This document shows positions 158 through 15,169 of a stretch of DNA of 15,169 nt, piece by piece. This DNA is from Bdellovibrionia bacterium (GTDB lineage Bacteria; Bdellovibrionota; UBA1018): NCBI GenBank assembly GCA_045805065.1, contig JBJMMA010000235.1, forward strand, positions 1-15,169, written 5' to 3'. Within the stretch, counting starts at the first letter, position 1; each line of letters opens with the position of its first letter. The position numbers and the translations under genes are program-made. Under the pieces are notes generated by a model. That model saw only the letters and a list, made by a program, of their open reading frames with translations. It had not been told where the DNA came from and did not search any database.

Positions 158-1690
158 ATGAGAAACGCACTTTTCGGTCTTTTCAGTCTGCTGGCGGTAA
201 TCGGGACTCACGCTTCAGCGTCCCCGGCGCATGATTCGACTCAACTTGCCTCTCTTCTCTCGTTTAAATTCCCTCGCTATGAACAATTGAAGATGCTTCC
301 TCCTGAAGCACAAAAGACTGTCATTGAGGGGATTCAGGCGTTCTTGATCCAAGCGGATCTAGAAGCGCGCAAGGGCGGCCAAGAGTCTGCCTTGAATGAC
401 CTCAATACTTTGAAGAGATTCTACGAGCTTTGGATTGAAACAGCAGAGGCAAAGCCGCGGTCTCGTTCTTCTTCAAAGTCCTCTTTAAAGTCCTCTGGGG
501 TGCAACAGCCTTATTGCATCAATCAAGGCGTCGTGAAACCTATCAGCGAATGCGATACATCGCTGGGGTATAAGATGCATGACTTTGATACAAACAAGGT
601 CTTATCGAAACTTGGACCTGCCTCTCAATGTCCCCCAGGTCAAATGCCCTGCAGCCCTTTCTTTGGCTTTACGTCCGAAGGACAGATGTTTTGCTCTTCT
701 AAAAACCTGACGCGCGATTGCGCGGAACAATCCAAACAGCCAGGCACCGTCTCGATCGTCAATGTCATGATGAGCTGTCAGGCTGGATCAGCTGGCGTGG
801 CCAAGGTGGATTGCAAGGCGTTAGGAGAATTCTTTGATCAGCAAATGGAAGTGGTCGAAAAGCTCTGTCAAAAGGCACCCAAGCGTTTTGCATGCGGAAT
901 CCTAAAGGATCAAATACGGGATGTGATGAACGAGGGCTCCGAGAAAAAGTCTGCCGCCAAAGAGGTTGGATTGGACAAAGTCGCAGAAGTCGTCCGAGCC
1001 ACAAACGAAGCTGCCCAGATGGACGCAGGTTCCGCTCCATGCCCGACCCAGGAGAAAGCTAAAGCCAAGTCTGCACCCGCTCCTGCAGCCAAGCCCAAGG
1101 AAGCACAGGCAGCATGTACTCAAAAGTCATCAGCCAAAAACTTTGAAAAACCGACATTGGATGCTTTGATAGCAGAACTCATGGGTGAGCACGCGGATGA
1201 CTTTGTCTGCGGAGAGCTGACTCTGCCAAACAAAAGCAAAATCGGCCTTAATCGAATGAAAGGTGAAATGACAGTCCAGGCAACGCCGGACTCCACACCG
1301 GTTACCTTGGATTTTGTCGAGGCTCAGCTTCTGGGAAATATATCAGCGGCACTTCTTGATCCGCCTCAAAAAGTTCCGCCTAAAGACCTTCTTGCACATT
1401 ACCTTCCAAAAGAGATCATGAAAGATCCTGGAAAAATCGTTCTAGAGAGCAAGGATGGTAAACAAAAGAAGGAATTTCCGTCCAAGGGATGGATCACGGC
1501 GAATGGAACACGGATTCGGTACATTCCCGGTGTTGATTTCGGCGATGAGAAAAAGCATATCGTGATGATGAGCGTTCAACTTCCCGGCAGCGCAAAAGAA
1601 ATGCGAATCGGCATCCCGCTCTCGCTCCCTGAGGATGGTCAGGAAGAACCGGCCAATGACTCCAAGGCTTTGCCAAGCCAGCCAGAGTAA
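158..1690 (+). CDS. secreted cysteine-rich hypothetical protein (510 aa)
   Basis: Long ORF with a Sec signal peptide (MRNALFGLFSLLAVIGTHASA), 13 Cys mostly in the central region (CINQG, CPPGQMPCSPFFG, etc.) and an Ala/Pro/Lys linker. GGGGA lies upstream of the ATG. No family recognised. Confidence 0.8.
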   Translation: MRNALFGLFSLLAVIGTHASASPAHDSTQLASLLSFKFPRYEQLKMLPPEAQKTVIEGIQAFLIQADLEARKGGQESALNDLNTLKRFYELWIETAEAKPRSRSSSKSSLKSSGVQQPYCINQGVVKPISECDTSLGYKMHDFDTNKVLSKLGPASQCPPGQMPCSPFFGFTSEGQMFCSSKNLTRDCAEQSKQPGTVSIVNVMMSCQAGSAGVAKVDCKALGEFFDQQMEVVEKLCQKAPKRFACGILKDQIRDVMNEGSEKKSAAKEVGLDKVAEVVRATNEAAQMDAGSAPCPTQEKAKAKSAPAPAAKPKEAQAACTQKSSAKNFEKPTLDALIAELMGEHADDFVCGELTLPNKSKIGLNRMKGEMTVQATPDSTPVTLDFVEAQLLGNISAALLDPPQKVPPKDLLAHYLPKEIMKDPGKIVLESKDGKQKKEFPSKGWITANGTRIRYIPGVDFGDEKKHIVMMSVQLPGSAKEMRIGIPLSLPEDGQEEPANDSKALPSQPE

Positions 1691-5160: not shown

Positions 5161-7280
5161 TCGCCCTCGCCTAGAGTCAGGCGAACTGTATCGCCTTCGG
5201 CGATGGCTTGTCCAGGCTCAGGCGTCTGGGCCCGAACCAATCCTACGCCTTTGACTTCCAGGTTGAGAGAGTGCCCCTCGAGCGCTTCGACAACTTCGCG
5301 AGGCGTCAGACCTCTGAGCGCAGGCATTTTCCAGGCGGGGCGCTGTGCCGTAGCGGTGCTCGCCAGCTCAAGCTGAGGCGGAATGACTGCGCCAGGCTCC
5401 CGATTCTCTTGAGAGCTATTCAGCTTTGGAGCAGGAGCTTTCGCAGCAAGCGCAGTCTGATGAGCGACAGCTTTTGCGATTGCAGCCTGACTGCTGCGAA
5501 CCATATCAGCAGGAGGTGCTGCGGGCTGCTTTGCATCCGCCAACGTATTGCTCGCTGGAGCTGGAAGGCTAAAGCGATTTGCCACGGCATTCAAAACTTC
5601 ACGGAACAAAGGCGCCGCAACCTCGCCGCCGTAGTACTGACCATGAGGCTCATCGATAGAGGCAAAGATCACAATTTTTGGCTCAACTTGAAGCGGAAAT
5701 CCAATGAAGGATGCCACGTAGCGAGAGCGAGAATAGCGTTTGGTCTCAGGATCGATCTTTTGCGCGGTTCCGGTTTTTCCCGCAATCCGATAGCCATTGA
5801 GAACTGCGTTTCCGCCCGTTCCGCCTTCTTTAGTCTGCGTTGTCGACTCAAGCGCTTCAATGACTTGCGCGGTCACCTTTTCGGACAGGATTCTATGTGG
5901 CTCTGGCGGCTGAGTGTTCTTCGATTTGATCAGCGTTGGCTGAACGAGCCATCCGCCGTTTAGGAAAGATGCGTAAATCCGGGCCATCTGGATAGGTGTG
6001 ACCAAAACGCCATGTCCAAATCCAATGTTAGCCAGAGTAATCGGGGTCCAAGCCTTACGCTGCGGAACGCGACCATTAATCTCACCGGGAAATTCGATTC
6101 CGGTCTTGGTCCCAAAGCCAAAGCTGTGAAGTGCTGCCAGATATTTATCCGCACCAAGCTTCAGAGCAAGCTTTGCAGCGCCGACGTTACTGGAGACTTG
6201 AATGATCTTCTTCAGCGAGATCCATTCAAAGCGCTCGTGAGCGGTTGCTTCAGAGATCGTTCGGCCACCGATTTTAAATTTCCCGTGCTCGCCATAGAGT
6301 TGATCCGTGAGCTTCATGCCGTTGGACAAAGCAGCGGCAAGCAACGCGGGTTTCAAAGTCGATCCAGGTTCATAGCCGTCGGTCAGGGCGCGGTTGCGCT
6401 TACGATCCGGAGAAGCACCGCGAATGTTTGGATTAAAGGATGGCTCATTGGCCATCGCAAGAATCTCGCCATTCATGGCGTTCATGACGATGACACTTCC
6501 GCCGCGAGCGTTGGCTTTTCTGACCGCGTTTCTGAGCTCTTCTTCAACCGAGTATTGAAGGGATGCGTCCAGAGTCAGGGTGACAGGCTCGCCATCGCGA
6601 CCTTCTTGAGCATCTTTTGCAGCCTTCGAGTCAATGAAAGCAGGTCTTCCCAGAGCATCACGAACGGCGCTGACAGAGATCACTTTGCCGCGAAGCTTTT
6701 CGTTCTGAAGAAGCTCAATGCCTTCCGTTCCTTCGGAATCAAGATTGGTTCCGCCGATGATATGCGCTGCAAGCTCATTATGCGGATAAACGCGCTCGCT
6801 CTCGCTCACGATCCAGAGTCCGTTGATGAGATCGCCATCGGGACCGATGATGTGATGCGTGCGAAGTCTTTCAAACTCATGATCTGAAAGATGGCGCTTG
6901 ATCCAGGCAAAGCCACGCCGATCGTCCATCTTCTTCATGATGTGCGATTGCGGAAAATCGAGAGCTTTCGCAAGTAGCCTCGCAACCGCTTTGCGATGGG
7001 CGATTTTTTGCGGATTCATGGCAAGGCTTCGAGTCTCGCTGTTGATCGCAAGCGGCTCGCCGTTGCGGTCCAGAATCGAGCCGCGCCTTGGGCTCACCAG
7101 AAATTTTGTTGTAAACTGCCGGCGCGAGAGTTTTTCGAGGCGTTGATCGCCTCCGATCTGAATCCATGCGGCTCTTCCCGCAAGCAATCCCGCGCCTGCG
7201 AGGCAGAGGACCATCAGAACAATGAAACGAGACTTGAACGGATCGGCGTGGTTATTCTGCGAATTGTTCTGCGTGTTCAT
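5157..7280 (-). CDS. ftsI: cell-division class B penicillin-binding protein FtsI/PBP3 with C-terminal PASTA domain
   Basis: N-terminal TM, RGSILDRNG, RVYP, GxEGIE, EPGSTLK (SxxK), SSN, GKTGTAQK. An Ala/Pro linker precedes a PASTA-like MPALRGLT...QTPEPG segment. Lies between ftsL and murE. Confidence 0.95.
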   Translation of the reverse strand: MNTQNNSQNNHADPFKSRFIVLMVLCLAGAGLLAGRAAWIQIGGDQRLEKLSRRQFTTKFLVSPRRGSILDRNGEPLAINSETRSLAMNPQKIAHRKAVARLLAKALDFPQSHIMKKMDDRRGFAWIKRHLSDHEFERLRTHHIIGPDGDLINGLWIVSESERVYPHNELAAHIIGGTNLDSEGTEGIELLQNEKLRGKVISVSAVRDALGRPAFIDSKAAKDAQEGRDGEPVTLTLDASLQYSVEEELRNAVRKANARGGSVIVMNAMNGEILAMANEPSFNPNIRGASPDRKRNRALTDGYEPGSTLKPALLAAALSNGMKLTDQLYGEHGKFKIGGRTISEATAHERFEWISLKKIIQVSSNVGAAKLALKLGADKYLAALHSFGFGTKTGIEFPGEINGRVPQRKAWTPITLANIGFGHGVLVTPIQMARIYASFLNGGWLVQPTLIKSKNTQPPEPHRILSEKVTAQVIEALESTTQTKEGGTGGNAVLNGYRIAGKTGTAQKIDPETKRYSRSRYVASFIGFPLQVEPKIVIFASIDEPHGQYYGGEVAAPLFREVLNAVANRFSLPAPASNTLADAKQPAAPPADMVRSSQAAIAKAVAHQTALAAKAPAPKLNSSQENREPGAVIPPQLELASTATAQRPAWKMPALRGLTPREVVEALEGHSLNLEVKGVGLVRAQTPEPGQAIAEGDTVRLTLGEGE

Positions 7281-7648
7281 TTCGATGCCCGAGCAGGTTC
7301 GCGAACCGGTGCGCTTTGAGACATGTAGATGACTTGATCGGACTTCGGTTGATTGAGCCCAAAACGTGCTCGGGCGATCATCTCAAGTCGCCGCGGCGAT
7401 CGAAGACCTGCGACCTTCACATCCATTTTCTCACGCGCTTCTTTCAAAGCACGGATCTGACGATCGGCCTGATCGATTGCGTAGGTTTTGCGAACAATCG
7501 ATAAGCGAAGCGCAACCGTTCCAATCGCCATTGCAATCAAAACTGGAATGACCCAGAGAGGCATCCACTGACGCAATGAGCTTCCAGCCGAAGATTGATA
7601 GGATGACGACTTATTAAATGATGCAGATCCAGTTTGTCTTACGGCCAT
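7277..7648 (-). CDS. ftsL: cell division protein FtsL
   Basis: 123 aa with a single TM, a coiled coil and LRSPRRLEMIARARFGL. Located between rsmH and ftsI with an ATGA overlap. Confidence 0.85.
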   Translation of the reverse strand: MAVRQTGSASFNKSSSYQSSAGSSLRQWMPLWVIPVLIAMAIGTVALRLSIVRKTYAIDQADRQIRALKEAREKMDVKVAGLRSPRRLEMIARARFGLNQPKSDQVIYMSQSAPVREPARASK

Positions 7649-9115: not shown

Positions 9116-10039
9116 TCAGCCAACTTTGAACATTTGAAGTTGTCGGGGCAGTTGCTGGGGCGAATGATGGATCACCTGGTGGTGCCCCCTGCAAATTAAG
9201 GTGAGAGTATCCAAAGTCGTCATGCCACCTTCAGACAAAGGCTTAATATGGTGAATATCAAGCCAGCGCCTCTCAGAACATCTCACCCCTTGTAATGATC
9301 GGTGAGTGCATTGCCCTTGATCACGTAGTCGCACCGCATGCTCAAGCCGTGCTGGAATAAATCTTAAGTTAGAGCTTTCAGAGGGCGCATTTGCCTGTCC
9401 CGGGACAGGTTTCGAATCTATCCTTTGTGCAGTCCTTTTTTCGGCTCGCAAAGCCTTTTCCATTGGATCCTTCTTTTCGACAAAGAGTTCCAATGCCGCC
9501 CGCAAGGTCTCTTCCATCGTTGCCGCCCTGCCACTTTGAGACGACACTAAGTCCTGAACACGCTTAAGCAATTCATAGACATCTTCAGAGAGGCCAATTT
9601 TAAGCTCGATACGGTTTTCAGAAACATACCGAGTTCGATCTTGAACTTGTCTATCAGGAAACTCCCGGGCGATTTCTTTTTCAAGCTCGCGCTTGGATAG
9701 CTCAGCCGCTGATGAGAGCCACCGATCTTGATTCTCAAGCGTAAGTACCGAAGCAATCATCCGCGCATTAGAAACCGTAACTTCTTGTCTCTGGATCATT
9801 TCATGAAGCTTAGGAACTTCACGGGACTTTCTGGCAATCGTAATAAAATTAAAGCTCACACTTTCAGAAAGTCCTAAGCCTTGAGTGGCATAATCAAAAA
9901 GACTTTTGAAACCCATCTCGCGATACCCACGGCAATCGTCGATCTCCTGTAAAACAGAAATAAGTTCACTTTCTGCTCTGAGATTAGTCTTTGTGATTTG
10001 AAGTGCCTTTTCATGAAGAACTTTAAAGCTCGTTTTCAT
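9116..10039 (-). CDS. HNH endonuclease with DUF222-like N-terminal region
   Basis: N-terminal GFKSLFDYATQGLGLSE helical region. C-terminal VRLRDQGQCTH...C...LDIHHIKPLSEGG...LICRGHHQVIH HNH/Zn motif. Visibly more AT-rich than the flanking genes. Confidence 0.85.
   Translation of the reverse strand: MKTSFKVLHEKALQITKTNLRAESELISVLQEIDDCRGYREMGFKSLFDYATQGLGLSESVSFNFITIARKSREVPKLHEMIQRQEVTVSNARMIASVLTLENQDRWLSSAAELSKRELEKEIAREFPDRQVQDRTRYVSENRIELKIGLSEDVYELLKRVQDLVSSQSGRAATMEETLRAALELFVEKKDPMEKALRAEKRTAQRIDSKPVPGQANAPSESSNLRFIPARLEHAVRLRDQGQCTHRSLQGVRCSERRWLDIHHIKPLSEGGMTTLDTLTLICRGHHQVIHHSPQQLPRQLQMFKVG
9394..9409. repeat. 16-bp perfect palindrome, copy 1 (inside the HNH gene)
   Basis: CCTGTCCCGGGACAGG; encodes PVPGQ in the inter-domain linker. 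Confidence 0.9.
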
Positions 10040-14754: not shown

Positions 14755-14783
14755 GAATCAGGCCAAAGGCCATTTCAAAATTC

Positions 14784-14816
14784 AAAAAGCCTCCGTCGCA
14801 AGACGGGGGCTTTTTT
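14784..14816. terminator. intrinsic terminator after mreB, probably bidirectional
   Basis: AAAAA-GCCTCCGTC-GCAA-GACGGGGGC-TTTTTT: a 9-bp stem with a GNRA loop, a T tract on the plus strand and an A5 tract that gives a U tract on the minus strand. Confidence 0.9.
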
Positions 14817-14831
14817 GTTTTCGGGACCTAC

Positions 14832-14860
14832 TTATCAACAAAGTTATCCACTTATCCACA
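14832..14860 (+). promoter_or_regulatory. cluster of three co-oriented DnaA boxes
   Basis: TTATCAACA (14832-14840), TTATCCACT (14844-14852) and TTATCCACA (14852-14860, perfect R-box). Confidence 0.6.
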
Positions 14861-14937
14861 CGGCTTTAAAACGCACCAAACCCAGCAGCCTCACATCAGT
14901 GCGGGGCTCCGGTTACGCTGTACCCAGAGCACTTACC

Positions 14938-15087
14938 TCACAATTGCCTTAAGTAGTGAGACACTAAAGCAGCCAGAAAAACCAGAAACCTAGCTAAGAC
15001 AATGAGATACCAGGTTTTCTGTTTAAGTTTTTCCAGCCTGATCCGATAAAGATAATAATCACGGTTGGGACCGTTCTTATTTCTCAT
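14938..15087 (-). CDS. small basic membrane peptide, 49 aa, candidate type I toxin
   Basis: Manual translation MRNKNGPNRDYYLYRIRLEKLKQKTWYLIVLARFLVFLAALVSHYLRQL*. Preceded by AGAAAGGAGGTGATCC, with GGAGG 7 nt from the ATG. Ten K/R versus two D/E, and a ~20-residue hydrophobic stretch (W26-L46). Confidence 0.75.
   Translation of the reverse strand: MRNKNGPNRDYYLYRIRLEKLKQKTWYLIVLARFLVFLAALVSHYLRQL
15023..15049 (+). promoter_or_regulatory. sigma28 (FliA)-type promoter, antisense to the small ORF
   Basis: TTAAGTTT-N11-TCCGATAA versus the enterobacterial consensus TAAAGTTT-N11-GCCGATAA: 7/8 in each box with exact spacing. Confidence 0.7.
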
Positions 15088-15088
15088 A

Positions 15089-15121
15089 GGATCACCTCCT
15101 TTCTTCACAGGGAAAGGAGGT
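15089..15121 (-). promoter_or_regulatory. extended Shine-Dalgarno sequestered by an upstream anti-SD hairpin
   Basis: Minus strand ACCTCCTTTC-CCTGTGAA-GAAAGGAGGT-GATCC-T-ATG: a 10-bp perfect stem covering the whole SD core. Confidence 0.8.
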
Positions 15122-15154
15122 AGTTCCTTCTACGCTGCCGGGTTTGGCTGGCGA

Positions 15155-15160
15155 ATCATA
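15155..15160 (-). promoter_or_regulatory. candidate -10 box for the small-ORF mRNA
   Basis: TATGAT on the minus strand puts the TSS at about 15148-15149, where the 5' arm of the long-range pairing begins. The -35 would lie outside the window. Confidence 0.45.
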
Positions 15161-15169
15161 AAAGCAAAA

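Follow-up and report, generated by a model that had tools for sequence, protein, structure and literature searches.

The window analyzed here is a 15,169-nucleotide stretch of DNA from a Bdellovibrionia bacterium, the entire contig JBJMMA010000235.1 (C235) of assembly GCA_045805065.1. Its minus strand carries, near one end of the contig, a 49-codon open reading frame (ORF), a real but unannotated small gene whose cationic product has a hydrophobic helix. The ORF is preceded by a Shine-Dalgarno (SD) sequence that complements the 3′ tail of 16S ribosomal RNA (rRNA), and the two are embedded in a conserved RNA element whose predicted structure hides the SD. We are highly confident that the gene is real, conserved, and translationally masked. 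With a probability of about 0.55, the RNA is an mRNA whose locked translation resembles that of type I toxins and whose product is a membrane-active toxin peptide. The features that define the element are as follows:

14874..15152, minus strand: whole conserved RNA element, the predicted transcript body of about 280 nucleotides, supported by an nhmmer match and folding
15135..15148, minus strand: 5′ arm of the 5′–3′ clamp, GCCAAACCCGGCAG, which pairs with 14888..14875
15112..15128, minus strand: anti-SD arm, a near-copy of the 16S 3′ tail, AGGAACUACCUCCUUUC, from the leader fold
15089..15104, minus strand: 16-nucleotide SD, a perfect complement of the 16S 3′ tail
14938..15087, minus strand: ORF of 49 codons and a stop, MRNKNGPNRDYYLYRIRLEKLKQKTWYLIVLARFLVFLAALVSHYLRQL, recognized from relatives, coding signature, and predicted helix
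14875..14888, minus strand: 3′ arm of the 5′–3′ clamp, CUGCUGGGUUUGGU, which pairs with 15148..15135

Shine-Dalgarno sequence and the encoded peptide

The minus strand of the window reads ...GGAACTACCTCCTTTCCCTGTGAAGAAAGGAGGTGATCCTATGAGAAAT... across the site. The segment AGAAAGGAGGTGATCC at 15104..15089 is a perfect 16-nucleotide complement of the 16S rRNA 3′ end of the same genome (G000, a 4.22-Mb assembly of 262 contigs), which reads GGATCACCTCCTTTCT and is encoded on another contig at G000:C130:3049-4603(-). The GGAGG core (15099..15095) is followed by seven nucleotides (TGATCCT) and the ATG start codon (15087..15085), which begins one nucleotide past the end of the 16S-tail complement. 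The frame closes at a TGA codon (14940..14938). The original prediction, made from the DNA letters alone, had described the match to the usual 16S tail and the seven-nucleotide spacing, and both hold against the genome's own 16S sequence. The 16-mer and all tested sub-words of at least 12 nucleotides occur at two sites in the assembly, the 16S gene and this SD. A remnant of an rRNA operon was considered as the origin of the sequence and rejected, as the site has no rRNA match on either side and the 16S gene is on another contig.

The predicted duplex between the SD and the 16S tail has an energy of -29.9 kcal/mol. The corresponding energies at the first ATG of the 4492 ORFs of at least 150 amino acids in the genome have a median of -6.1 kcal/mol, a first percentile of -15.0 kcal/mol, and a minimum of -21.0 kcal/mol. 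By predicted strength, this ribosome-binding site beats every other in the genome, and the original prediction had remarked that no other gene start examined in the window is comparably strong. All 16 nucleotides of the SD are kept in 19 of 60 copies of the element family described below, and at least 11 nucleotides in 35 of the 60. The over-long SD is a selected feature.

The peptide is composed of a basic, Tyr-rich N-terminal half and a hydrophobic C-terminal half broken by R33, the layout that had been read from the sequence. It contains ten Lys and Arg residues, two Asp and Glu residues, and five Tyr residues, and the net charge of +8 agrees with the earlier estimate. The best 19-residue Kyte-Doolittle window covers residues 28-46 with a mean of 2.16 and includes R33. 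Members of the family have a median net charge of +8 (range +5 to +14), and 39 of 45 contain a hydrophobic window of at least 1.6, interrupted by one to three charged residues. A Trp residue is conserved in 36 of the 45 aligned members. Given the alignment of the family, AlphaFold2 predicts a single unbroken helix spanning residues 8-48, with a mean predicted local distance difference test score of 82. The window peptide matches no family of Pfam, NCBIfam, or PADLOC. When the 45 members were compared with curated protein families, among them Hok/Gef and other toxin families, they gave only scattered single matches, all with E >= 0.03, and the best scores in the ESM Atlas, 0.80, are within the range of shuffled sequences.

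The reading frame bears a clear coding signature. Of 990 pairs in the codon alignment of 45 intact copies, 99.8% have a lower proportion of non-synonymous differences (pN) than of synonymous differences (pS). The median ratio of non-synonymous to synonymous substitution rates (dN/dS), a comparison that the original prediction had proposed, is 0.37. Third codon positions are the most variable and second positions the least, with column entropies of 1.00, 0.83, and 1.22 at positions 1, 2, and 3. Codons of the hydrophobic segment keep T at the second position and vary at the other two. Length differences, located in the N-terminal part and around LEKLK, are in frame throughout. The ATG is at a fixed distance from the SD, and the position of the stop is conserved across the family.

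The frame is open for at least 41 codons in 56 of the 62 copies with a recognizable start, and the ORFs range from 41 to 53 codons; L048, with 58 amino acids and an altered C-terminus, is among the 56. Five of the 62 copies are shortened by stops or rearrangements. Loci that lose the frame while keeping the SD-like sequence had been named in advance as evidence against the gene. The broken copies keep the SD hairpin but form a small minority, so that the gene stands against this objection, and they are the pseudogene scatter expected of a multi-copy family.

Predicted locks of the RNA element

The alignment of the element (A2) comprises 38 of 60 extracted copies, the other 22 being near-duplicates, truncated, or rearranged. 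Conservation in the 38 copies spans from about 30 nucleotides upstream of the RNA to about 65 nucleotides beyond the stop codon. The full-length RNA of the window folds with a minimum free energy (MFE) of -118.9 kcal/mol and a z-score of -7.19 relative to shuffled sequences.

The two ends of the RNA are joined by the clamp, a helix of 14 pairs predicted by RNAalifold. Of the alignment cells in this helix, 93.7% are paired, and 13 of the 14 pairs exhibit changes on both sides. For the whole 39-pair structure, none of 500 shuffles reaches the observed values, and pairing is 35-55% when the partners are slid against each other, compared with the observed 87%. The non-Watson-Crick cells of the clamp are 56 G.U and 3 A.C. 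Therefore, selection acts on the RNA of the ORF strand and not on a DNA palindrome.

The second lock is the SD hairpin, to which the original prediction had alluded and which is real: ACCUCCUUUC (15121..15112) pairs with GAAAGGAGGU (15103..15094). The segment ACCTCCTTTC of the anti-SD arm is identical to ten contiguous nucleotides of the 16S tail. The leader folds with an MFE of -20.7 kcal/mol, and in this fold the pairing takes in the whole SD and reaches the base that precedes the AUG. RNAalifold run on the MAFFT alignment did not return the SD hairpin, because the variable loop was misaligned, and the leaders were thus folded singly. At least four of the five SD-core nucleotides are paired in all 60 leaders, and all five are paired in 43. 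The stem contains compensatory changes, as CCUCC/GGAGG is replaced by CCCCC/GGGGG and also by CCAAU/AUUGG. An RNA thermometer was rejected as an explanation of the hairpin: the leader hairpins have energies of -12 to -36 kcal/mol and long perfect stems, which, from what is generally known of thermometers, are far too stable.

One subfamily, comprising copies of genome G019 such as L040 and L043, has a CCCCC anti-SD arm opposite GGAGG. In the sense RNA this gives an A.C mismatch, whereas an antisense RNA would form a G.U pair there. The columns of the SD hairpin contain 35 G.U and 61 A.C cells overall, partly from misalignment.

Two further hairpins are positioned between the stop codon and the 3′ arm of the clamp:

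14907..14929, minus strand: post-stop hairpin with the stem CUCUGG/CCGGAG and the loop GUACAGCGUAA, from the alignment and covariation
14889..14906, minus strand: second 3′ hairpin with the consensus CUCUC-N5-GAGAG, seen by eye in the alignment and absent from the MFE structure of the window RNA

The post-stop stem (helix 5) consists of six pairs, four of which have changes on both sides. The stem covaries, but most of the 38 aligned copies conserve the loop (14913..14923, minus strand), which might be contacted by a protein, an RNase, or a partner RNA. Rfam produced no match in the whole window at its gathering thresholds, and a search of positions 14780-15169 at E <= 10 gave terminator-type chance matches only.

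Promoter, transcript, and distribution of the family

The family has a promoter of the sigma-54 type. In 41 of 60 copies, the first aligned base is preceded at a distance of 9-12 nucleotides by the motif GG[CT]A[CT]-N5-TTGC, and several further copies contain one-off variants of it. At the background frequency in G000, 166 matches among 8.44 M positions, a 48-nucleotide window would be expected to contain about 0.0009. The same genome encodes rpoN (PF04552 match at C21:362-841, E 1.4e-64). The contig stops 65 nucleotides upstream of the SD, which cuts the promoter region of the window copy, and the features at the two ends of the transcript are:

15164..15169, minus strand: TTTTGC, -12 element of the sigma-54-type promoter, the -24 element of which is beyond the contig end
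14784..14815, both strands: bidirectional intrinsic terminator with a 14-bp stem and T-runs on both strands, common to the convergent mreB

The TTGC of the window is 12 nucleotides upstream of the conserved RNA start, and copies from the same genus have the same spacing. By homology, the window copy may also depend on sigma-54, although with some uncertainty. The spacing from the promoter, with GC at -12, suggests that transcription starts at about 15152, which would make the 5′ arm of the clamp the first part of the RNA. A palindrome-like box (GATCCGAnnTTCG / CCGATTTTCGG) is located about 95-110 nucleotides upstream of the -24 element in the G019 copies L043, L051, and L046, a distance typical for enhancer-binding-protein sites of sigma-54 promoters.

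It is possible that the terminator at 14784..14815 ends the primary transcript of the window copy. The 3′ arm of the clamp (14874..14880, minus strand) ends in or precedes a U-rich run, GGUUUGGUUUU in many copies, and the long-range helix together with this run might itself act in termination.

A 217-nucleotide contig from an RNA library (X5, record 26) covers 14911..15127 with 14 differences and one gap and originates from a relative. It is a weak hint of transcription, as it may derive from DNA carry-over and holds no information on strand or ends. Eight sequencing runs had word shares of 0.06-0.15, and in the four that were compared, most contigs cover the mreB of relatives. A sigma-70-like site, TTTCCA-18-AATAAT, is present on the antisense strand (15030..15059, plus strand, 9/12 matches) and is directed over the start codon and the SD. 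Its sequence comes from the conserved codons for LEK and Tyr-Tyr. The site is a possible candidate for the promoter of an antitoxin, for which the evidence is ambiguous.

A six-frame search identified strong matches in about 15 of 61 related genomes, often many in each: 24 in G019, 18 in G003, seven each in G018 and G035, and six in G001, which belongs to the same genus as the window's genome. Related genomes differ in copy number, from 0 to 24, and tandem arrays with a spacing of about 430-450 nucleotides occur among the copies. Seven of 151 sampled genomes of the phylum were matched, all of them in the window's order, from which 23 genomes were scored, and none of the 128 sampled genomes outside the order was matched at E <= 1e-5. 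The family appears to be confined to the window's order in the genomes sampled. Its hosts are named Bacteriovoracaceae, Bdellovibrionia, or Bdellovibrionota. The family profile matched 92 proteins among 1.84 billion cluster representatives at E <= 1e-3; with few exceptions, these stand alone and have 40-50 amino acids. A word-based search found nine related proteins, all unnamed or labelled 'hypothetical', and the family is a conserved one that standard annotation has missed.

The window's own assembly contains one copy (15151..14875, nhmmer with the family profile, E 5.8e-65). The contig breaks inside the promoter of the element, at 15169, and many copies in other assemblies are likewise located at contig ends. 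These positions suggest collapsed or unassembled repeat copies, and copy numbers that are lower bounds. The count in the window's own genome is such a bound because repeats are often lost from assemblies of this kind.

The window copy is positioned downstream of and convergent with mreB, and adjoins the cell-wall (dcw) cluster. No conserved neighbor was identified in the window or among the 29 ORFs flanking ten other loci, which all belong to unrelated housekeeping families, and the phage records, viral contigs, and plasmids searched contain no relative. Therefore, the element is a self-contained intergenic module, and on the same two observations the proposal that the peptide is holin-like lacks support. 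Three ORFs of the window in the cell-wall cluster, 158..1690 (plus strand), 7277..7648 (minus strand), and 9116..10039 (minus strand), have no Pfam match at E <= 1e-5.

Function of the element and its relation to known systems

SD/anti-SD pairing and long-distance 5′–3′ interactions serve as descriptors for finding type I toxin mRNAs (PMC8594479, in excerpt). A membrane-active toxin is the best reading of the element because it combines an anti-SD hairpin in cis with a long-distance helix between the 5′ and 3′ ends, the hallmark of type I locks. We infer toxicity from this locking architecture, the properties of the peptide, and the dynamics of copy number and pseudogenes. Upon activation of sigma-54, one mRNA of about 280 nucleotides would be made, most likely from the sigma-54-type promoter. 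It would stay closed by means of the 14-bp clamp and the near-copy of the 16S tail on the whole ribosome-binding site. Processing, refolding, or a factor would then open the hairpin. In the opened RNA, the tail of the 30S subunit (-29.9 kcal/mol) would outcompete the cis decoy (-20.7 kcal/mol) and the peptide would be translated. The peptide, with its hydrophobic C-terminal half, would insert into the membrane and arrest growth. The logic is best read as that of a type I toxin mRNA, such as hok or aapA1, with the addition of a full-tail SD like that of rreB.

Several observations weigh against a locked toxin mRNA. A basic N-terminus with a hydrophobic C-terminus is the reverse polarity of many type I toxins, and the peptide lacks a match to any toxin family known to Pfam, NCBIfam, or PADLOC. 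When the 3′ arm of the clamp was removed in silico (253 nucleotides), the SD hairpin stayed in both the MFE and the centroid structures, and the activation route of hok and aapA1 is therefore not reproduced. The antisense promoter box scores in 27 of 38 copies, but the same AT-rich box also scores on the sense strand in about 19 of the 38. Scanning the sequences revealed neither an antisense terminator conserved across the family nor an antitoxin RNA. The -24 element of the window copy is off the contig, and copies from the same genus have GAGCAT instead of TGGCAT. An intrinsic terminator occurs within 140 nucleotides of the clamp in 8 of 58 copies only, at scattered distances. Expression evidence consists of RNA-library contigs of relatives only, and a single copy is assembled in the window's own genome. 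Overexpression of rreB is not toxic, so that an exceptionally strong SD is by itself no sign of a toxin (PMC5711450, in excerpt).

A different kind of function would be that of an rre-type mRNA, in which the full-tail SD would dock the RNA tightly to the 30S subunit and thereby control its own stability or ribosome availability. The peptide would then be a harmless membrane protein or, as the original prediction had also considered, a regulator of a membrane complex. The 16-nucleotide complement of the 16S tail in front of a small ORF, partly enclosed in a conserved hairpin, is an arrangement shared with rreB (PMC5711450, in excerpt), and both the conservation of the family without a partner gene and the sequence scan that found no antitoxin agree with such a role. 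However, the ORFs of the family have 41-53 codons, are under purifying selection for a hydrophobic helix, and start with an ATG seven nucleotides past GGAGG, whereas those of rre mRNAs have 14-18 codons and start with GTG. Furthermore, the 5′ part of the rreB SD is free to act as a seed, whereas the whole SD is paired here, and up to 24 copies, tandem arrays, and scattered pseudogenes are more like selfish or toxin modules. We consider a ribosome-regulated mRNA of the rre type unlikely. It is improbable that the product is a leaderless bacteriocin-like peptide, made on a sigma-54 signal against the membranes of prey or competitors, with the lock protecting the producer until export. The peptides, which may resemble leaderless class II bacteriocins, have a length of 41-53 amino acids, a charge of +5 to +14, no signal peptide, Trp in 36 of 45 members, and one predicted amphipathic or hydrophobic helix; they are encoded by multi-copy tandem paralogues, and the hosts are Bdellovibrionota. 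Nevertheless, no gene for an exporter, immunity, or modification is conserved among the 29 ORFs at ten loci, and the peptides have no similarity to the bacteriocin families of Pfam.

Two other explanations deny the peptide a role. The element could be a non-autonomous mobile element, similar to miniature inverted-repeat transposable elements (MITEs) or repetitive extragenic palindromes (REPs), with the clamp arms as terminal inverted repeats and the ORF and SD as passengers or accidents. Such an element would account for copies dispersed in unrelated intergenic sites, for their number varying from 0 to 24 between related genomes with many at contig ends, and for the inverted-repeat-like arms. 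It is nonetheless a very improbable explanation: divergent arms stay complementary, and the excess of G.U over A.C cells indicates strand-specific selection at the RNA level, unlike DNA palindromes or transposase sites. The conserved unit also takes in the promoter beyond the arms, purifying selection acts on the ORF, and no transposase is adjacent at the loci scanned. The alternative that the element is a structured non-coding RNA, in which the 49-codon frame is incidental, draws on the nucleotide conservation and predicted helices that continue through the ORF, and on the fact that some of the most conserved codons (LEKLK, FL) are in segments able to pair with each other or with the SD. The dN/dS of 0.37 and the codon-position periodicity go beyond what RNA structure alone would impose, and the frame open in 56 of 62 copies, the in-frame insertions and deletions, the fixed distance between ATG and SD, and the conserved stop position argue in the same direction. 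We regard an incidental frame as extremely improbable.

Returning to the toxin mRNA, we speculate about a broader role, which is quite unlikely in its entirety. The family might represent a class of antitoxin-less, activator-gated toxin modules in predatory bacteria. A signal transmitted by sigma-54 and an enhancer protein would fire up to two dozen copies of an mRNA kept shut by an internal imitation of the 16S tail. Each opened RNA would seize a 30S subunit by its entire tail and deliver a membrane-depolarizing peptide. The combination of ribosome capture and membrane shutdown would switch the cell between growth and a non-growing state, either attack or dormant.

Of the earlier interpretation, the small gene and the over-long SD stand and the holin lacks support; it had missed the multi-copy family, the end-to-end clamp, the 16S-tail mimic, and the sigma-54-type promoter. 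With these results, Bdellovibrionota would gain a lineage-specific family of locked mRNAs that resemble those of small toxins. The cis decoy that mimics the 16S tail would let the RNA's own anti-SD compete directly with that of the ribosome, which could explain over-long SDs. The genome with 24 matches is named 'Bdellovibrionota bacterium FG-1' and, unlike seven other host genomes, does not carry the label of a metagenome-assembled genome; it may derive from an isolate, which could make experiments possible. Literature searches found no description of the family or of a sigma-54-driven type I toxin, the supplementary tables of T1TAdb, which might list loci of the phylum, being outside their coverage. 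The searches also found no type I toxin system for Bdellovibrionota, and 'Bdellovibrio' is absent from the main text of T1TAdb (PMC8594479).

Small multi-copy intergenic RNA genes with -24/-12 promoters are known from sigma-54-dependent small RNA families, such as Qrr of Vibrio and GlmY/GlmZ (PMC10162802, PMC3045617, in excerpt). Unlike these, the RNA of the family described here carries a selected ORF with its own ribosome-binding site. Qrr and GlmY/GlmZ are non-coding regulators dependent on Hfq or an adaptor.

The hok/Sok system belongs to enterobacterial plasmids and chromosomes, and full-length hok mRNA, like that of aapA1, is inert before processing. The family resembles hok/Sok and aapA1/IsoA1 of Helicobacter pylori in encoding a small hydrophobic peptide of less than 60 amino acids on a structured mRNA of about 250-400 nucleotides, in the pairing of the 5′ and 3′ ends, in the sequestration of the SD by an anti-SD in cis, and in its chromosomal, multi-copy, often tandem loci without a protein partner (PMC8594479, PMC5416894, in excerpt). 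The full-length aapA1 mRNA is inert owing to a long-distance interaction and is activated by 3′ processing (PMC5416894, in excerpt); in the window RNA, deletion of the 3′ arm in silico leaves the SD hidden. Other differences from hok and aapA1 are that the sequence scan found no antisense antitoxin for the family, that the peptide lacks sequence similarity to Hok/Gef or other toxin families, that the SD matches the whole 16S tail, and that the hydrophobic segment is C-terminal. In addition, the promoter is of the sigma-54 type, which implies that transcription is gated by an activator and not constitutive. The element would function as a type I toxin mRNA does, but it is not to be filed as a type I toxin-antitoxin system because the sequence scan found no antitoxin and the peptide has no homology to known toxins.

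The rreB and rreR genes of Alphaproteobacteria are, like the family, free-standing small mRNAs conserved within a lineage, with a ribosome-binding site that complements 16-17 nucleotides, the whole single-stranded 16S tail, and is partly enclosed in a conserved hairpin (PMC5711450, in excerpt). The rreB SD of 17 nucleotides, part of which is in the hairpin, confers strong 30S binding and weak translation (PMC5711450; Hahn et al. 2016, in excerpt). Their ORFs of 14-18 codons encode unstructured peptides, and the GTG start contains the last base of the complement (PMC5711450, in excerpt). The family differs from rreB and rreR in that a mimic of the 16S tail masks its SD completely and a clamp joins the two ends of the RNA. 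It also has a promoter of the sigma-54 type, reaches 24 copies in a genome, and belongs to a different phylum, Bdellovibrionota. It possesses the defining SD feature of rre mRNAs and fails their ORF and start-codon features. The family would unite three mechanisms that have so far been investigated apart from one another: sigma-54 gating, end-to-end locking in the style of hok and aapA1, and a full-tail SD of the rreB type.

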